From Paludibacteraceae bacterium (lineage in GTDB: Bacteria; Bacteroidota; Bacteroidia; Bacteroidales; Paludibacteraceae), in contig CAJOKE010000014.1 of assembly GCA_905235225.1 (NCBI GenBank), positions 4,175 through 68,174 on the forward strand: a stretch of DNA of 64,000 nucleotides, in the 5' to 3' direction. The position numbers and the translations under genes are program-made. The notes below the pieces were generated by a model. The model made no database searches. It was not told the DNA's origin and worked only from the letters and a program-made list of their open reading frames with translations. Of this stretch, positions 11,859 through 16,436 are shown one piece after another (within the stretch, counting starts at the first letter, position 1; the number at the start of each line of letters is the position of its first letter).

Positions 11859-13094
11859 CTATTTTAAGCCAATAAAATTACTCAACGGCTCAATATGTGC
11901 TACTTGGGTATATTTTCTTTTATGCAAATCTATTTGCTGGTCATAATTTACCATCTTACTTACTTCAAAATGCAGAACAGCATAGTAAGGAGCATTCTCT
12001 GCACTAAATCCTAATTCGCGTAATGCTTCGGCGGTCCATATTTGGAAACCTTTCTTGGTCTGCTTGAATAGTTGCGGATTATCTCCATTGGTATGCAAAC
12101 AAATATAGCCCAAACGCTCAAAGCCTTGTTTCACAAGCAACGAACCCTTGCTGTCTCCTGCTCTCGTATATGTTATGCCTAATTGCATCGCCAGTTCGCG
12201 ATCTTTCTCGCGCATGTGATTCACCAAAACCGTTGCCTCTTGCCCGTTCTCGCGCATTTTGTCAAAGAGTTTCTTTTTCGCTTGCTCATCCTCTAACGCT
12301 TGTCTGCGCCGCAGAGATAAATCGACAAATGGTTTTTCTTGCTCTATTCCGATAAACTTGCGCCCAAGCAGATTAGCGGCAATACCTGTTGTGCTGGAAC
12401 CGCAGAACGGGTCAAGAATGGTGTCGCCCTCGTTGGTCGATGCAAGGATGATTCTATATAGCAGCCGGAGTGGTTTTTGCGTCGGGTGTTTGCCTTGCAG
12501 TTTCTCCCACGAACCAACCGCCGGAATACGCCATACATCGGTCATTTGCGTACCACCGTTCAACTGTTTCATGGTCTCGTAGTTGAACTTGTGCGTTTTC
12601 TTCTCCGACTTACGTGCCCAAATAATCAGTTCCGTAGAGAAGTTGAAATACTTGCACGACAAATTGGGGGGCGGGTCGGTTTTCTGCCAAGTGATTGTAT
12701 TGAGCACTTTGTACCCCAATTCTTGCAAGCAGCGCATTACAACATGGATATTATGGTGCGTACCACTAATCCAAATAGTGCCGTTCTCTTTCAGTTTTGG
12801 TCGGCATAGTTCCAACCAACGGCGGTTAAACTCGTAGATATATTCGGGTGTGCCGCCTTTGTCCCAATCGCCTTTGTCCACGCACACTTGTTTTCCACTA
12901 TGCACACTTATTCCACCGTTACTCAGGAAGTATGGCGGGTCGGCAAAAATAGCATCGATAGAGTTGTCCTCTATCTCTTTCAGCCGCTCCATGCAATCGC
13001 CTTGCAAGATGCGGAAGTCTGGGATTTTACATCCGTAATCAACATGTTTAAAGTGTTCCCATTCTAATGGTAACTCATCATTTTTAGTAATCAT
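11859..13094 (-). CDS. Beta-class N6-adenine DNA methyltransferase, CcrM/M.HinfI-like core plus an unassigned C-terminal extension of about 135 aa
   Basis: Motif IV IFADPPYF precedes motif I DPFCGSSTTG (beta order). HPTQKPLRLLYRII and GTIWISGTHHNIH match the CcrM family. The C-terminal 135 aa do not resemble the CcrM C-terminal domain. Confidence 0.85.
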   Translation of the reverse strand: MITKNDELPLEWEHFKHVDYGCKIPDFRILQGDCMERLKEIEDNSIDAIFADPPYFLSNGGISVHSGKQVCVDKGDWDKGGTPEYIYEFNRRWLELCRPKLKENGTIWISGTHHNIHVVMRCLQELGYKVLNTITWQKTDPPPNLSCKYFNFSTELIIWARKSEKKTHKFNYETMKQLNGGTQMTDVWRIPAVGSWEKLQGKHPTQKPLRLLYRIILASTNEGDTILDPFCGSSTTGIAANLLGRKFIGIEQEKPFVDLSLRRRQALEDEQAKKKLFDKMRENGQEATVLVNHMREKDRELAMQLGITYTRAGDSKGSLLVKQGFERLGYICLHTNGDNPQLFKQTKKGFQIWTAEALRELGFSAENAPYYAVLHFEVSKMVNYDQQIDLHKRKYTQVAHIEPLSNFIGLK

Positions 13095-13155
13095 TTTGTA
13101 GCGTTTGTTATGTTTGCTACCTTGTTACTAAAATTGACTTCCCGCGGGTACAACT

Positions 13156-13175
13156 GTGAGCAAAGATTTGCTCAC
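13156..13175. promoter_or_regulatory. Perfect 9+9 inverted repeat GTGAGCAAA-GA-TTTGCTCAC in the spacer upstream of the methylase (candidate operator or RNA hairpin)
   Basis: Read directly. The arms extend imperfectly to about 13123-13212, and a third half-site lies at 13205-13220. Confidence 0.6.
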
Positions 13176-13342
13176 GTTGTGGCCCTCGGAAAGCCAGTAA
13201 TAAGACAAATCTTGCTCACATGTACGCACAGTGAACGTTACGATTTGTTCTTCTTATTACTATAAATTTCCGAGGTTTCAACGTAAATAGAACAAATAGC
13301 AAACGCTAGTTAATATTAGTATGTCACCGCCGCTGCGGATTT

Positions 13343-14089
13343 TTATAGTATAAACTCTAAGTTTTGTTTCTCAAATTCTTGTTCGTATTGTTTACCAAGC
13401 GATTCATAACTTAAAAATGATACGCGCTTCTTCTCTGCCAATTGGTGAAATGCAGCATAACCCATTTTGCTAATAAACTCATTATGACGCTTCTCATCCG
13501 CCACGATAACCATACGAGCCGCAAAATCTTGCAAGTCATTGAATTTCAGCAAAGAGTTTTGAATGTCTGTAGAGTGCTCAATCTCAAAGAAAGAGTGAGG
13601 CATGTGACGGTCGTTAAACCAAATCACATCAATAGTGGAACTGCGCTTGACGAGTTTAGGAAAAGAGTATTCGGGGAGTACCTGTATTGTACGCAGGTTG
13701 CCTAATTCTGCTTGATTGAGGAACTGCTTATGCTTATCTTGGTCCGGCACAAAAGTGTCTAAATGACGCATTTTGCCCATTTCTAACAATAGACCTTGAT
13801 AGTAAGCGTGATTGAATGTCTTTATTGCATCGGAATCTTGGTTGTGTTCGTTTTGCACAAGAATACCGTTTCCTTCCAACTCCTGACGATGAGATTCAAG
13901 CGCATAGAGACCAGGCTTGATTTTATATATATCGGCATTCTGCTGAACTATGCGGCGAATACTTGCAAATGGCGTTTTGGTATGCCATTTGCAATCTTCT
14001 ATTTTGAAAATATTTTGATTGATTTGGTTAAGAGTAGCAATGCCACCCAACTTCTCAATCGTCTCTATTACCGCTTGGTTCTGGGTCAT
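13343..14089 (-). CDS. Winged-helix plus nuclease-like protein (candidate restriction endonuclease or effector)
   Basis: N-terminus IETIEKLGGIATLNQINQNI...PFASIRRIVQ...IYKIKPGLYAL is wHTH-like. The C-terminus TIDVIWF-x13-FFEIEHSTDIQNSLLK resembles a D...E.E..K nuclease core. The start overlaps the GNAT stop (ATGA). The function is inferred and was not searched. Confidence 0.45.
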   Translation of the reverse strand: MTQNQAVIETIEKLGGIATLNQINQNIFKIEDCKWHTKTPFASIRRIVQQNADIYKIKPGLYALESHRQELEGNGILVQNEHNQDSDAIKTFNHAYYQGLLLEMGKMRHLDTFVPDQDKHKQFLNQAELGNLRTIQVLPEYSFPKLVKRSSTIDVIWFNDRHMPHSFFEIEHSTDIQNSLLKFNDLQDFAARMVIVADEKRHNEFISKMGYAAFHQLAEKKRVSFLSYESLGKQYEQEFEKQNLEFIL

Positions 14090-14640
14090 AATCCTTGCTC
14101 TATATGCTCCTTGAAAGGCTTTAAATCAAAATACATCAACCGCGTTTTATCAAGCGTATCTAACATCGTAAAATATTGGAATCTGTTCTTCTCGTAGAAT
14201 GGAGTGGCGTTAGCATATGCATCTACAGTCAAGAAACGACAACCTATTTTAGGTTCAGTTACCATAAAATACTTTACGTATTCCAGAATTTGAGACCCCA
14301 ATCCCTCACGTTCATATGACTTAGCCACAGCTAAACGAGCAATTTTTGCGGATGGATAACTACGGCGGCGTTTGCTGTTTGGGATGAGACGGTTGATACG
14401 ATTCCAGATACCCTTTTCTCTAGGGTCGTAAGCCACTTTATCATTTAACAAACTGAAATATGCTACAGTCTGCTGTTTTTCTTTGTCAATAAAAAGATAC
14501 GTTACTGCCATTAAATCAGCGGAATAGTTCTTTGCATCTTCCATCAAAAAACTATTCAAGTCTTCATCTCCTGAGACAAAAGGCAATAACGGCATGTCCT
14601 GTGTAAGCTGGACAAATTCAAAATCGGACAGGTGCATCAT
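14086..14640 (-). CDS. GNAT-family acetyltransferase of the TacT/KacT toxin type
   Basis: 184 aa. F.SGDEDLNSFL near the N-terminus, acetyl-CoA loop IARLAVAKSYEREGLGSQIL (R..G.G), FYEKNRFQYF. Small upstream partner ORF with an ATGA overlap. Confidence 0.7.
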   Translation of the reverse strand: MMHLSDFEFVQLTQDMPLLPFVSGDEDLNSFLMEDAKNYSADLMAVTYLFIDKEKQQTVAYFSLLNDKVAYDPREKGIWNRINRLIPNSKRRRSYPSAKIARLAVAKSYEREGLGSQILEYVKYFMVTEPKIGCRFLTVDAYANATPFYEKNRFQYFTMLDTLDKTRLMYFDLKPFKEHIEQGL

Positions 14641-14795
14641 AGAACATTTGGATATTTAGCTTTTACCGCTAAATAAATAGCCTGAGCACGTTGCACCTCC
14701 TCTGCTGTAACCGGTTGCGGGTGTTCTACAGCGTATGCAAATCTCCTTGCGTCCTCACCGTACAATGTTGGTGTTTCTTTAATAGGTCTGGCCAT
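14637..14795 (-). CDS. 52-aa ORF, candidate antitoxin of the GNAT toxin (not in the ORF track)
   Basis: Translated by hand: MARPIKETPTLYGEDARRFAYAVEHPQPVTAEEVQRAQAIYLAVKAKYPNVL. Its TGA overlaps the GNAT ATG (ATGA). A TAnnTTTG box lies 29 nt upstream. Confidence 0.5.
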   Translation of the reverse strand: MARPIKETPTLYGEDARRFAYAVEHPQPVTAEEVQRAQAIYLAVKAKYPNVL

Positions 14796-14823
14796 AATTA
14801 TTGTAGTTTAATTAAATCCGCTG

Positions 14824-14831
14824 CAAAGATA
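14824..14831 (-). promoter_or_regulatory. -7 promoter box (TATCTTTG) for the 52aa/GNAT/nuclease-like cassette
   Basis: Plus-strand CAAAGATA in an AT-rich 190-bp spacer. Confidence 0.5.
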
Positions 14832-14986
14832 CAATTTTAAATTCATATAAGCAAATATTTTTGTAATAAAATATTTTTTATGTGCGTTTTTAAGCGATTT
14901 GAATACTATTTAGAATATCATTGAGTCTTTTTCGAGAAATCAGCTCTGGTTATAATATCCATTACATGCTTGTTATTTAAAACTTG

Positions 14987-15169
14987 CTACAAAGTTGTCT
15001 TGAAAACGCTTACTGCCAAGAGCATTGCTCCTCCGCCGACAAACGGCTCAATGTAAGTAACATTCTCCCATGTATCAAAGTCAGCTGGAAGCAGTGCTTC
15101 GAGTTGGTCAATGAGTTGTGTTTTGCCGCCAACCCATTTGATAAATGGTTTCGCTTTCATTGTTTTCAT
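14987..15169 (-). pseudogene. 5' remnant of a Dam-type (D12 class) DNA adenine methyltransferase gene
   Basis: The 60-aa ORF carries [13 protein letters not shown] and [11 protein letters not shown], the N-terminal motifs of Dam-family enzymes of about 280 aa. It then stops, and no DPPY region follows. Confidence 0.7.
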
Positions 15170-15276
15170 TGTATATTGTTTTTCTTTTGTTTACTCATTT
15201 GTGCGATTCCGAAGCCACGGAGGGATTATTTTTTGCTTTCTTTTCTCGGTCATCGCTCGGTCTTCGGTCGGTGGGA

Positions 15277-16290
15277 TCAGTTCTTCTGGTTTATCAGGTT
15301 CACCACCACTTTGACCATGGTGTCTTTTTCTTCTGTACGGCTCTCTGCAATCATGAGGGTTAGCGCGACAAGGGTGTTATCTGCTATACGCTTGGTGCCA
15401 TCCTCGCGGTATAGAATGCCGTTATTGTTTAGGAACCACAGGAACAACGTAGCCGCGATGCGTTTGTTTCCGTCTGAAAAGGAGTGGTTCTTGGTCACTA
15501 AATACAGCAACATGGCAGCTTTCTCCTCCACACTCGGATATAAATCCGTTCCTCCAAAGGTCTGATAAATCTGACCTATACTGCTTTTGAACGAATCATC
15601 TTTCTCATTTCCAAACAAAGTGCTACCGCCGAACTTCTCACGCAGCGCAGCAATCGTCTGCATGGCATTCTCATATGTGGCATGGAAGCGTTCTTCAGGC
15701 GTAGTCTCTTTGACGGTCAGCCGCTCGTAATCATAGTTATCGAGCGTGTCCAGCGCATACGTATAATCCAAAACGACATCGAAAATAGCTTGCGTCTCAT
15801 CTGCGCTCTCCACCGCTTTGCTTTGTACCGTCCGTCCAACAATCTGAACCAACTGCCGCAAATCCGACAACTGCTCACGACGAATCTTTTCGTTGATGGC
15901 ATAGCCTTTGATGAGGTAGTCTTTGAGAATTCTGTTTGCCCATTGACGGAATTGCACACCACGTTGAGACTTTACACGATAACCAACGGAGATGATTACA
16001 TCGAGGTTGTATAGCGTTGTTTCTACTTCTTGTGAGAAGTTATCTCTACGACCATATTTCTTGGGTAGTGCAAATTTTGCACATACCAAGGATTCGTTCA
16101 ATTCTCCTTCGGAGAAAATATTGCGTATGTGCCGTCCTATAACTGTTCTATCGCGGTCAAAGAGTTGAGCCATCTGGTCTTGCGTCAGCCACACGGTTTC
16201 GTTCTCCATGCGCACATCGAGTTGTACCGTGTTGTCTTCCGCACGATAGATGATTATCTCGCCTCTATTTTCAATAGGTTTCTCGTTCAT
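15277..16290 (-). CDS. RhuM-family N-terminal domain fused to a Fic/Doc domain
   Basis: Trimmed to MNEKPIENRGEIIIYRAEDN. The RhuM-type part is TVWLTQDQMAQLF...NLDVIISVGYRVKSQRGVQFRQWA. The C-terminal part has the Fic/Doc motif HSFSDGNKRIAA. Confidence 0.8.
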   Translation of the reverse strand: MNEKPIENRGEIIIYRAEDNTVQLDVRMENETVWLTQDQMAQLFDRDRTVIGRHIRNIFSEGELNESLVCAKFALPKKYGRRDNFSQEVETTLYNLDVIISVGYRVKSQRGVQFRQWANRILKDYLIKGYAINEKIRREQLSDLRQLVQIVGRTVQSKAVESADETQAIFDVVLDYTYALDTLDNYDYERLTVKETTPEERFHATYENAMQTIAALREKFGGSTLFGNEKDDSFKSSIGQIYQTFGGTDLYPSVEEKAAMLLYLVTKNHSFSDGNKRIAATLFLWFLNNNGILYREDGTKRIADNTLVALTLMIAESRTEEKDTMVKVVVNLINQKN

Positions 16291-16343
16291 ATTGTTAAAG
16301 TTGCATTTATTGCAAAGGCAACATATATTTGCAAAATGCACCG

Positions 16344-16351
16344 CAAAGGTA
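16344..16351 (-). promoter_or_regulatory. -7 promoter box (TACCTTTG) for the RhuM-Fic gene
   Basis: Plus-strand ccgCAAAGGTAc, 54 nt upstream of the ATG at 16290. Confidence 0.55.
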
Positions 16352-16436
16352 CAATAAAAAGTTGAAAGTACAAAATAGAAGGTACAAAAAGTATGATTAC
16401 GATACACTTTTTTTTGCATATGTGCAATTTTTGCAG

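Follow-up and report, generated by a model that had tools for sequence, protein, structure and literature searches.

A probable composite of an MboI/DpnII-layout restriction-modification operon and a portable GNAT toxin-antitoxin pair in a Paludibacteraceae bacterium

Comparative analysis of a 64,000-nucleotide (nt) stretch from a Paludibacteraceae bacterium (contig CAJOKE010000014.1; hereafter the window, to which all unlabelled coordinates refer) revealed that two independent modules are present at one minus-strand locus. One is a pair of genes for a 52-amino-acid (aa) protein (orf52) and a GNAT acetyltransferase, and the other is a group of restriction-modification genes including those for a restriction-endonuclease-type protein (R) and a DNA methylase (M2). 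The locus is probably a composite, in which a restriction-modification operon of the MboI/DpnII layout carries a portable toxin-antitoxin (TA) pair in place of the body of its first methylase gene (M1). The features concerned are the following:

14637–14795, minus strand: orf52, candidate antitoxin, 52 aa, conserved partner of the GNAT
14086–14640, minus strand: GNAT acetyltransferase of the TacT/AtaT/KacT toxin clade, 184 aa
13343–14089, minus strand: R, restriction-endonuclease-type protein, 248 aa, with a winged-helix-like N-terminal region and an NmeDI_C nuclease domain
14987–15169, minus strand: N-terminal stub of the Dam-type (D12-class) methylase M1, 60 codons, assigned by profile matches
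14824–14855, minus strand: putative promoter of Bacteroidetes type, with TTTG at 14852–14855 and TATCTTTG at 14824–14831
13098–13307, minus strand: structured non-coding element of ~210 nt between the nuclease and methylase genes, conserved and with compensatory changes
11859–13094, minus strand: M2, beta-class N6-adenine (N6_N4) DNA methylase, 411 aa

The loci compared comprised 56 from genomes and 80 from metagenomes, plus eight contigs with an identical or 80% identical nuclease; single loci are cited by L numbers. The orf52–GNAT pair is a portable, autonomous module. An orf52-like open reading frame (ORF) and a GNAT gene stand together, with no nuclease nearby, on one Parabacteroides distasonis and one Segatella copri plasmid. 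Loci L069–L078 contain 57–65% identical GNATs amid housekeeping genes, also with no nuclease nearby, and each of these GNATs has a 52-aa ORF beginning MARPIKETP upstream. At least five different genomic contexts contain the pair but lack the nuclease, which identifies it as an autonomous two-gene module. The complete trio of orf52, GNAT and nuclease recurs in L013, L015 and L016, with GNATs of 70–77% identity.

By sequence and predicted fold, the 184-aa GNAT is a member of the TacT/AtaT/KacT toxin clade, which bears out the resemblance to TacT and KacT proposed in an earlier note on this DNA. The protein matches Pfam Acetyltransf_10/7/1 and, over its full length, the phage acetyltransferase family phrog_1758 (E = 1.7e-30). 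Its best sequence matches in the PDB are GNAT toxins of TA systems, including AtaT2, TacT1, TacT3 and KacT, and these alignments take in the N-terminal F-x-C-G-x-x-x-L-N-x-F/W-L segment. The AlphaFold model (34 homologues in the alignment) has a pLDDT of 87.4 and a pTM of 0.83. When this model was compared with the PDB by Foldseek, all of the 38 top matches were KacT, AtaT, TacT1-3, GmvT or 7byy (“bacterial toxin”), with TM-scores of 0.65–0.78 and E-values from 2.5e-11 to 2.4e-8; after a sharp drop, unrelated GNATs followed (E ≥ 1e-6, TM about 0.5). The predicted fold is thus the one found in the toxins of the TacAT, AtaRT, KacAT and GmvAT systems. F21, D25, L28, Y149 and F154 are invariant in the 34 homologues, conservation also extends to F148, G115 and the nearly invariant G113, and the conserved family residues are intact in the window copy. 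The F-x-(C/S)-G-x-x-D-L-N-x-F segment, the G-L-G loop and the F-Y-x-K-N-x-F motif of TacT and AtaT2 align with the window protein. At the level of alignment, E-R-E-G-L-G-S-Q corresponds to Q-G-Q-G-L-G-A-Q in the acetyl-CoA loop of TacT3, and F-Y-E-K-N-R-F to F-Y-L-K-Y-A-F of AtaT2, with Y149 falling in the catalytic-tyrosine motif (Y140, Y144 and Y145 in TacT, AtaT and KacT).

The small ORF upstream of the GNAT is missing from the ORF track of the window, and the claim of the earlier note that it is a gene proved correct. In all loci examined, the GNAT homologue is immediately preceded by an ORF of 51–55 codons; this ORF accompanies GNATs of 57–77% identity and one of 31% identity in sister loci, and also the 31–36% identical GNATs on the two plasmids. 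All eight distinct sequences of the window type (seven relatives and the window itself) have 52 codons, and their stop codon overlaps the GNAT start or lies within 2 nt of it. More distant partners are 51–55 aa long and end up to 9 nt ahead of the GNAT start, and in L023 and L025 a 52-aa partner overlaps the start of a divergent GNAT (GNAT2) by 16 nt. The shared start follows the pattern MA..I...P.L.G..A..F, in which M1, A2, I5, P9, L11, G13, A16 and F19 are invariant. Synonymous differences (pS) are near saturation at 0.7–0.9, and non-synonymous differences (pN) in codons 1–26 are low, 0.02–0.08 in the closer pairs. Among 1.84 billion cluster representatives, 137 clusters (50% identity) match the family at E ≤ 1e-3; entries of greater length result from mis-called starts before the same MARPIKETP protein and contain no extra domains. 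Because of the conserved upstream position, the purifying selection and this 137-cluster family, orf52 is a real gene.

No match to orf52 was found in Pfam, NCBIfam or PADLOC, and a profile of 11 homologues retrieved nothing from the PDB at E ≤ 10. The sole PHROG match (E = 0.0014) is to a family without assigned function. These searches detected no ribbon-helix-helix (RHH) or DUF1778 DNA-binding domain, in agreement with the earlier statement that the protein does not look like such antitoxins, and autoregulation by DNA binding is therefore not expected. Known GNAT/RHH systems also have a small partner gene upstream with a stop overlapping the toxin start, but their antitoxins are RHH/DUF1778 proteins, whereas the 52-aa partner has no such domain. 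From its position and by analogy with TacAT and AtaRT, orf52 is a candidate antitoxin. A likeness of orf52 to the C-terminal neutralising segment of DUF1778 antitoxins was not substantiated and is treated as an analogy.

The three ORFs of 52, 184 and 248 aa are chained by ATGA stop/start overlaps, at 14640–14637 between orf52 and GNAT (...GTT CTA TGA TGC...) and at 14089–14086 between GNAT and nuclease (...GGA TTA TGA CCC...), the TGA of the upstream ORF having two bases in common with the downstream ATG at both junctions. The coordinates and translations given for this chain in the earlier note were reproduced. Comparison of the sister loci showed that the place of the pair, from the Dam stub to the nuclease start (hereafter the slot), holds other genes elsewhere. 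In L006–L008, where the nuclease is 80% identical, the same Dam stub and M2 are present, but HicA and HicB-like genes stand in the slot instead of orf52–GNAT. The contents of the slot in 26 species-representative genomes with 72–92% nuclease identity, tallied by inspection, were:

orf52 and GNAT: 4 of 26 genomes, one internally deleted
divergent orf52 and GNAT: 2 of 26 genomes, one frameshifted
49-aa ORF and 147-aa retropepsin-like aspartic protease: 5 of 26 genomes
NYN-domain protein: 2 of 26 genomes
KilA-N protein: 1 of 26 genomes
PDDEXK_2 protein: 1 of 26 genomes
Dam stub alone: 7 of 26 genomes
other short ORF or nothing: 4 of 26 genomes

Metagenome loci of the same clade added an ORF6N protein. 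Next to nuclease homologues of 60–63% identity, the abutting gene in one metagenome locus (L128 2336–3238) encodes a RelA/SpoT-domain protein that might be a toxin of the small alarmone synthetase type, and in one genome locus (L038 4426–5991) it encodes a Schlafen/AlbA_2 protein that also has an ATPase domain and a helix-turn-helix. In nearly all loci having an ORF upstream of the nuclease, this ORF ends between −4 (ATGA) and +16 nt from the nuclease start, and in eight loci a 40-aa Dam stub ending ...TINV-stop forms an ATGA overlap with the nuclease gene. Since upstream ORFs of all kinds end on the nuclease start, the coupling is a property of the slot and is not evidence for cooperation between GNAT and nuclease. 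Judging from these junctions, stop/start chaining is a feature of the 5′ junction of the nuclease gene, inherited from the Dam–nuclease junction.

The Dam stub stands upstream of the nuclease in most sister loci, and its truncation differs among them, from about codon 30 to codon 63. No common repeat was found at the cassette boundaries across loci. Site-specific or integron-like insertion of cassettes was considered and ruled out by these varied junctions and the lack of a shared repeat; the replacements look like independent illegitimate events, followed by recombination in the conserved flanks. Each of the GNAT, aspartic protease, NYN and HicAB cassettes comes with a TTTG/TAnnTTTG promoter, either its own or a shared one. 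Promoter segments can be aligned ahead of the GNAT cassettes in sister loci, and those before the aspartic protease and NYN cassettes have 75–81% identity over about 60 nt.

The cassette of 49-aa ORF and protease (L010 5415–6004; also L014, L020, L031, L009 and L084) is itself a candidate TA-like pair. The protease matches Pfam gag-asp_proteas (E = 3e-8), its gene overlaps the 49-aa ORF by 4 nt, and its junction with the nuclease gene is an ATGA overlap.

The nuclease is accompanied by adenine methylase genes. In the clade of 68–92% nuclease identity, M2 lies downstream in essentially all loci that extend far enough, across a spacer of about 190–290 nt; with the clade widened to ≥58% identity, the same is true of most such loci. 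M2 matches Pfam N6_N4_Mtase (E = 1.2e-60) and PADLOC MTase_II (E = 1.7e-96). The Dam stub of the window, which the earlier note had missed, matches Pfam MethyltransfD12 (E = 1.3e-9) and NCBIfam dam (E = 1.9e-14) over only the first ~45 profile positions. L019 has a longer yet 3′-truncated Dam that ends at about codon 245, and a full-length Dam abuts the nuclease in L099, L108, L111, L115 and L140, among others. In many loci of 58–62% nuclease identity, Dam and/or M2 flank the nuclease gene; the canonical order there is full-length Dam, nuclease, a small DpnD/PcfM-like gene and a beta-class methylase, with Dam ending 0–16 nt before the nuclease start. Dam, beta-class methylase and endonuclease are found in one operon in L099, L111, L115, L140, L156 and L157. 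These canonical operons look ancestral to the arrangement in the window.

In MboI, DpnII and LlaDCHI systems, as a matter of general knowledge, a Dam-type and a beta-class adenine methylase are both GATC-specific. Their order of Dam-type M1, endonuclease and beta-class M2 is the order in the distant relatives of the window locus, and the likeness extends to the DpnD-like gene, to a DpnII-family gene in L014 and L064, and to the depletion of GATC described below. The endonucleases differ: that of DpnII systems is Pfam DpnII, whereas the window nuclease has NmeDI_C and does not match Pfam DpnII (PF04556), and a true DpnII occurs only in addition in L014 and as a fragment in L064. In the window, moreover, M1 is a stub with the TA pair, and the DpnD-like gene is replaced by the structured element.

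The stub itself is more conserved than the restriction-modification genes. Over 15018–15164, compared with L007, L010, L011, L013, L015, L022 and L028, pN was 0.01–0.04 and pS 0.21–0.39 in five of the seven comparisons, and pN was 0.07–0.12 in two stub-only loci; its synonymous divergence is below that of the nuclease gene, for which these pairs of loci give 0.48–0.86. Because the substitutions are mostly synonymous, constraint on the protein or gene conversion is indicated rather than a nucleotide signal, and the same pattern speaks against the stub being a conserved DNA element. Either the stub is a functional peptide or ORF (e.g., a leader), or it has been converted repeatedly from intact dam genes.

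The 248-aa protein was described as nuclease-like in the earlier note, and the database matches place it more precisely among restriction endonucleases. It is assigned to Pfam PF27126 (NmeDI_C) in precomputed database assignments and matches PADLOC REase_II (PDLC03534) over residues 142–209 (E = 1.1e-5). A tblastn search gave E = 3e-7 to an annotated type II restriction endonuclease of Streptomyces, and the family has 4345 homologues at E ≤ 1e-3. A weak match to Pfam Phage_endo_I (E = 0.13) was disregarded. Across 21 homologues of 42–74% identity, H94, Y96, Q98, G99, P115, D118, D154, E169, E171, K182 and D188 are invariant, and all family-invariant residues are intact in the window copy. The predicted secondary structure around D154, E169-x-E171 and K182 is beta-beta-alpha-beta (in a model with pLDDT 43.6). 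A D...E-x-E arrangement is known as the BamHI-type form of the PD-(D/E)XK motif, which is a lead to a possible core of this kind here. Where synonymous divergence is unsaturated, the ratio of non-synonymous to synonymous substitution rates (dN/dS) is about 0.07–0.08. R.NmeDI of Neisseria meningitidis, which has this C-terminal domain in common with the window protein, is an experimentally characterised type II enzyme (PMC2095814). It is 351 aa long, which is also the number of positions in the PDLC03534 model, compared with 248 aa in the window; the N-terminal regions differ, and the matched stretch covers ~70 residues. R.NmeDI acts at RCCGGY and cuts on both sides of the site. Its partner methylase is not of the N6-adenine class, unlike the partners of the window nuclease, so that the recognition site of the latter must differ. 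From its gene neighbourhoods we concluded that the 248-aa protein is the putative restriction enzyme of a two-methylase operon, and M2 is presumed to be the protector against it.

With moderate confidence, the site of this operon is taken to be GATC. The window contains 72 GATC sites against 209 expected (0.34) and is thus depleted in them, which is not the case for GANTC (189 sites against 231 expected, 0.82). It is possible, though unlikely, that the unit instead recognises GANTC, in the manner of CcrM or HinfI, or another non-GATC site, the Dam stub and DpnII genes then being remnants of a separate GATC system. The best NCBIfam match of M2 is indeed CcrM (E = 1e-71), but the score of 242 bits is far under the family cut-off of 830. 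The term “CcrM-like” used for M2 in the earlier note is therefore too narrow: it fits the class of the methylase (beta-class), and the operon context is DpnII/MboI-like, which points to GATC rather than GANTC as the likely site. In L012 and L014, the genes between R and M2 could be read as an inserted system made up of Dam and an endonuclease. Between the nuclease and an M2 that is 70% identical to the window M2, L014 does have a complete Dam gene and one for an endonuclease of the DpnII family (Pfam E = 1.2e-97); however, this M2 starts one base after the DpnII-family gene, and in many other loci the full-length Dam directly adjoins R. Fragments of DpnII, nuclease and M2 also lie together in a Helicobacter locus (L064).

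Other palindromes are also strongly avoided over the whole 64 kb, namely CTAG (3 sites, observed/expected 0.03) and GGCC (0.19); together with GATC, their avoidance points to a long history of contact with restriction systems that act at such sites. The positions of the extra genes in L014 (7002–9939) and L012 (7019–10253) mark a second slot, between the structured element and the beta-class methylase, which in L012 holds a 676-aa Dam fusion with a weakly nuclease-like C-terminal region. One metagenome locus (L150 3819–4898) has an in-frame fusion of a DpnD-like ORF with the gene for the beta-class methylase. The C-terminal ~120 residues of M2 (11859–12230; residues ~290–411) extend beyond the catalytic domain and have no family match; in several sister loci (L023, L026) this extension is swapped for unrelated sequence and the catalytic domain is kept.

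Several observations weigh against the composite of restriction-modification operon and TA pair. Many nuclease homologues of 41–64% identity are solitary, with housekeeping neighbours and no Dam or M2 within 3.5–6 kb. In at least five loci (L017, L018, L024, L028 and L082) the nuclease ORF is intact beside a truncated or frameshifted M2, and M2 is also rearranged in L025. The nuclease does not, therefore, strictly need the methylase next to it; hosts with a degraded M2 may be protected by an unlinked Dam, or some enzymes of the family may do without a cognate methylase. The nuclease gave no significant match in the PDB, either as a single sequence or as a 21-homologue profile, its AlphaFold model is poor (the pLDDT of 43.6 came from a 13-sequence alignment with 78–100% identity), and Foldseek with this model returned only noise. 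On the side of the TA pair, no similarity of orf52 to known antitoxins was detected in Pfam or the PDB, and of the six GNAT cassettes that lie in a restriction-modification context, those of L019 and L025 are broken, from which it follows that the cassette can decay and the operon be kept. Lastly, no canonical promoter box was found for M2.

The solitary homologues and the nucleases kept despite a degraded M2 would also fit a modification-dependent or stand-alone nuclease of DpnI/Mrr type (winged helix and PD-(D/E)XK), for which the adjacency of the methylase is secondary. We take the architecture of the protein to resemble Mrr and DpnI, and the canonical loci have a DpnD-like gene after the nuclease, DpnD being part of the pneumococcal DpnI cassette that encodes a methyl-dependent enzyme. 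However, the nuclease gene of the canonical loci lies between two adenine methylase genes of the same orientation, 0–16 nt from Dam, and this arrangement would be suicidal for an N6-methyladenine-dependent enzyme of the same specificity. In addition, the sole characterised relative of the domain, R.NmeDI, is a conventional type II enzyme, and no sequence similarity to the DpnI or Mrr structures in the PDB was found. We consider this alternative improbable.

Two readings had been offered in the earlier note. In the first, a type II restriction-modification unit is expressed together with an addiction module, and this fits all of the comparative data. In the second, orf52 and the GNAT would act jointly with the winged-helix nuclease, as sensor or effector, in a three-component toxin or abortive-infection system. 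The latter is highly improbable: the tight coupling of all three genes, the recurrence of the trio in L013, L015 and L016 and the defence context (a RhuM/Fic gene matching PADLOC PDC-S23 directly upstream) speak for it, but the check proposed in the earlier note largely refutes it, as the pair recurs elsewhere unlinked to the nuclease, and the nuclease stays with the methylase when the cassette is exchanged or lost, standing beside at least eight other upstream genes or the Dam stub only, and intact beside the broken GNATs of L019 and L025.

The trio is preceded by a TAnnTTTG box (TATCTTTG) located 29 nt upstream of the orf52 ATG. No other such box occurs on the minus strand from 12951 to 16344, in keeping with the single box given in the earlier note, and TTTG at 14852–14855 lies 20 nt above the TATCTTTG box, a −33-like spacing. 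From the match to the consensus we infer that this region is a promoter, and with no canonical box before M2 it may also drive that gene. Scans for sigma-70 promoters and for terminators gave no useful information in this organism. All four genes (orf52, GNAT, nuclease and methylase) are under purifying selection, and the nearest relatives of the encoded proteins are found in rumen-derived genome assemblies of Paludibacteraceae and other Bacteroidales.

For the composite of restriction-modification operon and TA pair we propose the following mechanism. Transcription from the TATCTTTG box would yield one transcript with orf52, GNAT, R and possibly M2, of which the first three would be translated serially by termination-reinitiation at both ATGA overlaps. 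Unless neutralised by orf52, the GNAT would stop translation by acetylating aminoacyl-tRNA; orf52 would bind the toxin directly, probably occluding the active site like the C-terminal segment of TacA or AtaR. R would cut unmethylated DNA, most likely at GATC, and M2 would protect the host. M1 would be dispensable because M2 is redundant with it, and its expressed and co-inherited position may have become a landing site for toxin and defence cassettes of addiction or abortive-infection type. If, as proposed, expression of R relies on coupling throughout the clade, a cassette upstream would have to end on the R start.

A bolder version of this proposal is speculative, and we consider it rather unlikely as a whole. 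Here, the slot would be a docking site maintained by selection, with the endonuclease translated only by reinitiation; M1 would have been replaced repeatedly by toxin and defence cassettes trimmed to the endonuclease start, which would hard-wire co-expression with an abortive-infection-type toxin. orf52 would then be the first of a minimal class of GNAT antitoxins without a DNA-binding domain, and the ~210-nt RNA would set the ratio of endonuclease to methylase.

The spacer before the methylase, described as structured in the earlier note, is a conserved element with compensatory base changes. By nhmmer, it was found directly 3′ of the nuclease in all 48 fetched loci of the clade with ≥68% nuclease identity, including two in which Dam and not the beta-class methylase comes next. 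The more distant canonical operons lack the element and have the DpnD-like gene in this position. Its conservation exceeds that of the genes on either side. For its three helices, 98% of alignment cells are paired, compared with about 43% in slid controls. Compensatory changes occur at 9 of 34 pairs, 8 of them in the 16-pair helix 13205–13221/13154–13171; in the second helix, CCUAGG/CCUAGG has changed to CCUCGG/CCGAGG in the subclade of the window. Rfam gave no match at E ≤ 1 in the spacer or the cassette, and tblastn with seven DpnD-like proteins found no DpnD remnant in the spacer. A reasonable guess is that the element controls methylase expression or read-through from the nuclease gene.

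Small upstream genes that overlap and are co-transcribed with the endonuclease gene are known from C-protein type II systems, e.g., PvuII (PMC2997769). The window locus likewise has a small overlapping ORF upstream, but the position is filled by a TA pair or other cassettes and not by a helix-turn-helix controller, and the delay circuit of PvuII-type systems is not evident here. A toxin module embedded in, and co-inherited with, a restriction-modification operon also has a counterpart in general knowledge, since the toxin/abortive-infection gene prrC lies inside the type I EcoprrI locus. The present locus differs from PrrC/EcoprrI in being of type II, in that the module replaces a methylase and is coupled to the endonuclease, and in the many alternative cassettes. 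To our knowledge, no type II restriction-modification operon has been described with a TA pair in place of a methylase gene and in translational chaining with the endonuclease gene, and the titles and abstracts covered by a targeted literature search contained no such replacement. Both kinds of module are known; new here are the family of minimal candidate antitoxins, the exchange of a methylase gene for toxin cassettes in a type II operon, the recurrent slot with its conserved stop/start coupling to the endonuclease gene, and the structured element.

The sister loci form a natural experiment in which a redundant gene of an expressed operon becomes a toxin landing site, where the assembly of defence and addiction modules can be followed. 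The 52-residue family offers a minimal candidate neutraliser of tRNA-acetylating GNAT toxins, which are relevant to persistence and phage defence. The structured element makes the control of endonuclease and methylase expression testable in Bacteroidales, which lack classical controller proteins and initiation led by Shine-Dalgarno sequences. As the known mechanisms of both modules are unchanged, the importance is moderate.

One further gene adjoins the Dam stub on its upstream side:

15277–16419, minus strand: RhuM-family and Fic/DOC domain protein, match to the PADLOC candidate defence family PDC-S23 (E = 5e-142)

With this gene directly upstream of the stub, the region from 11.8 to 16.4 kb forms a small defence island.

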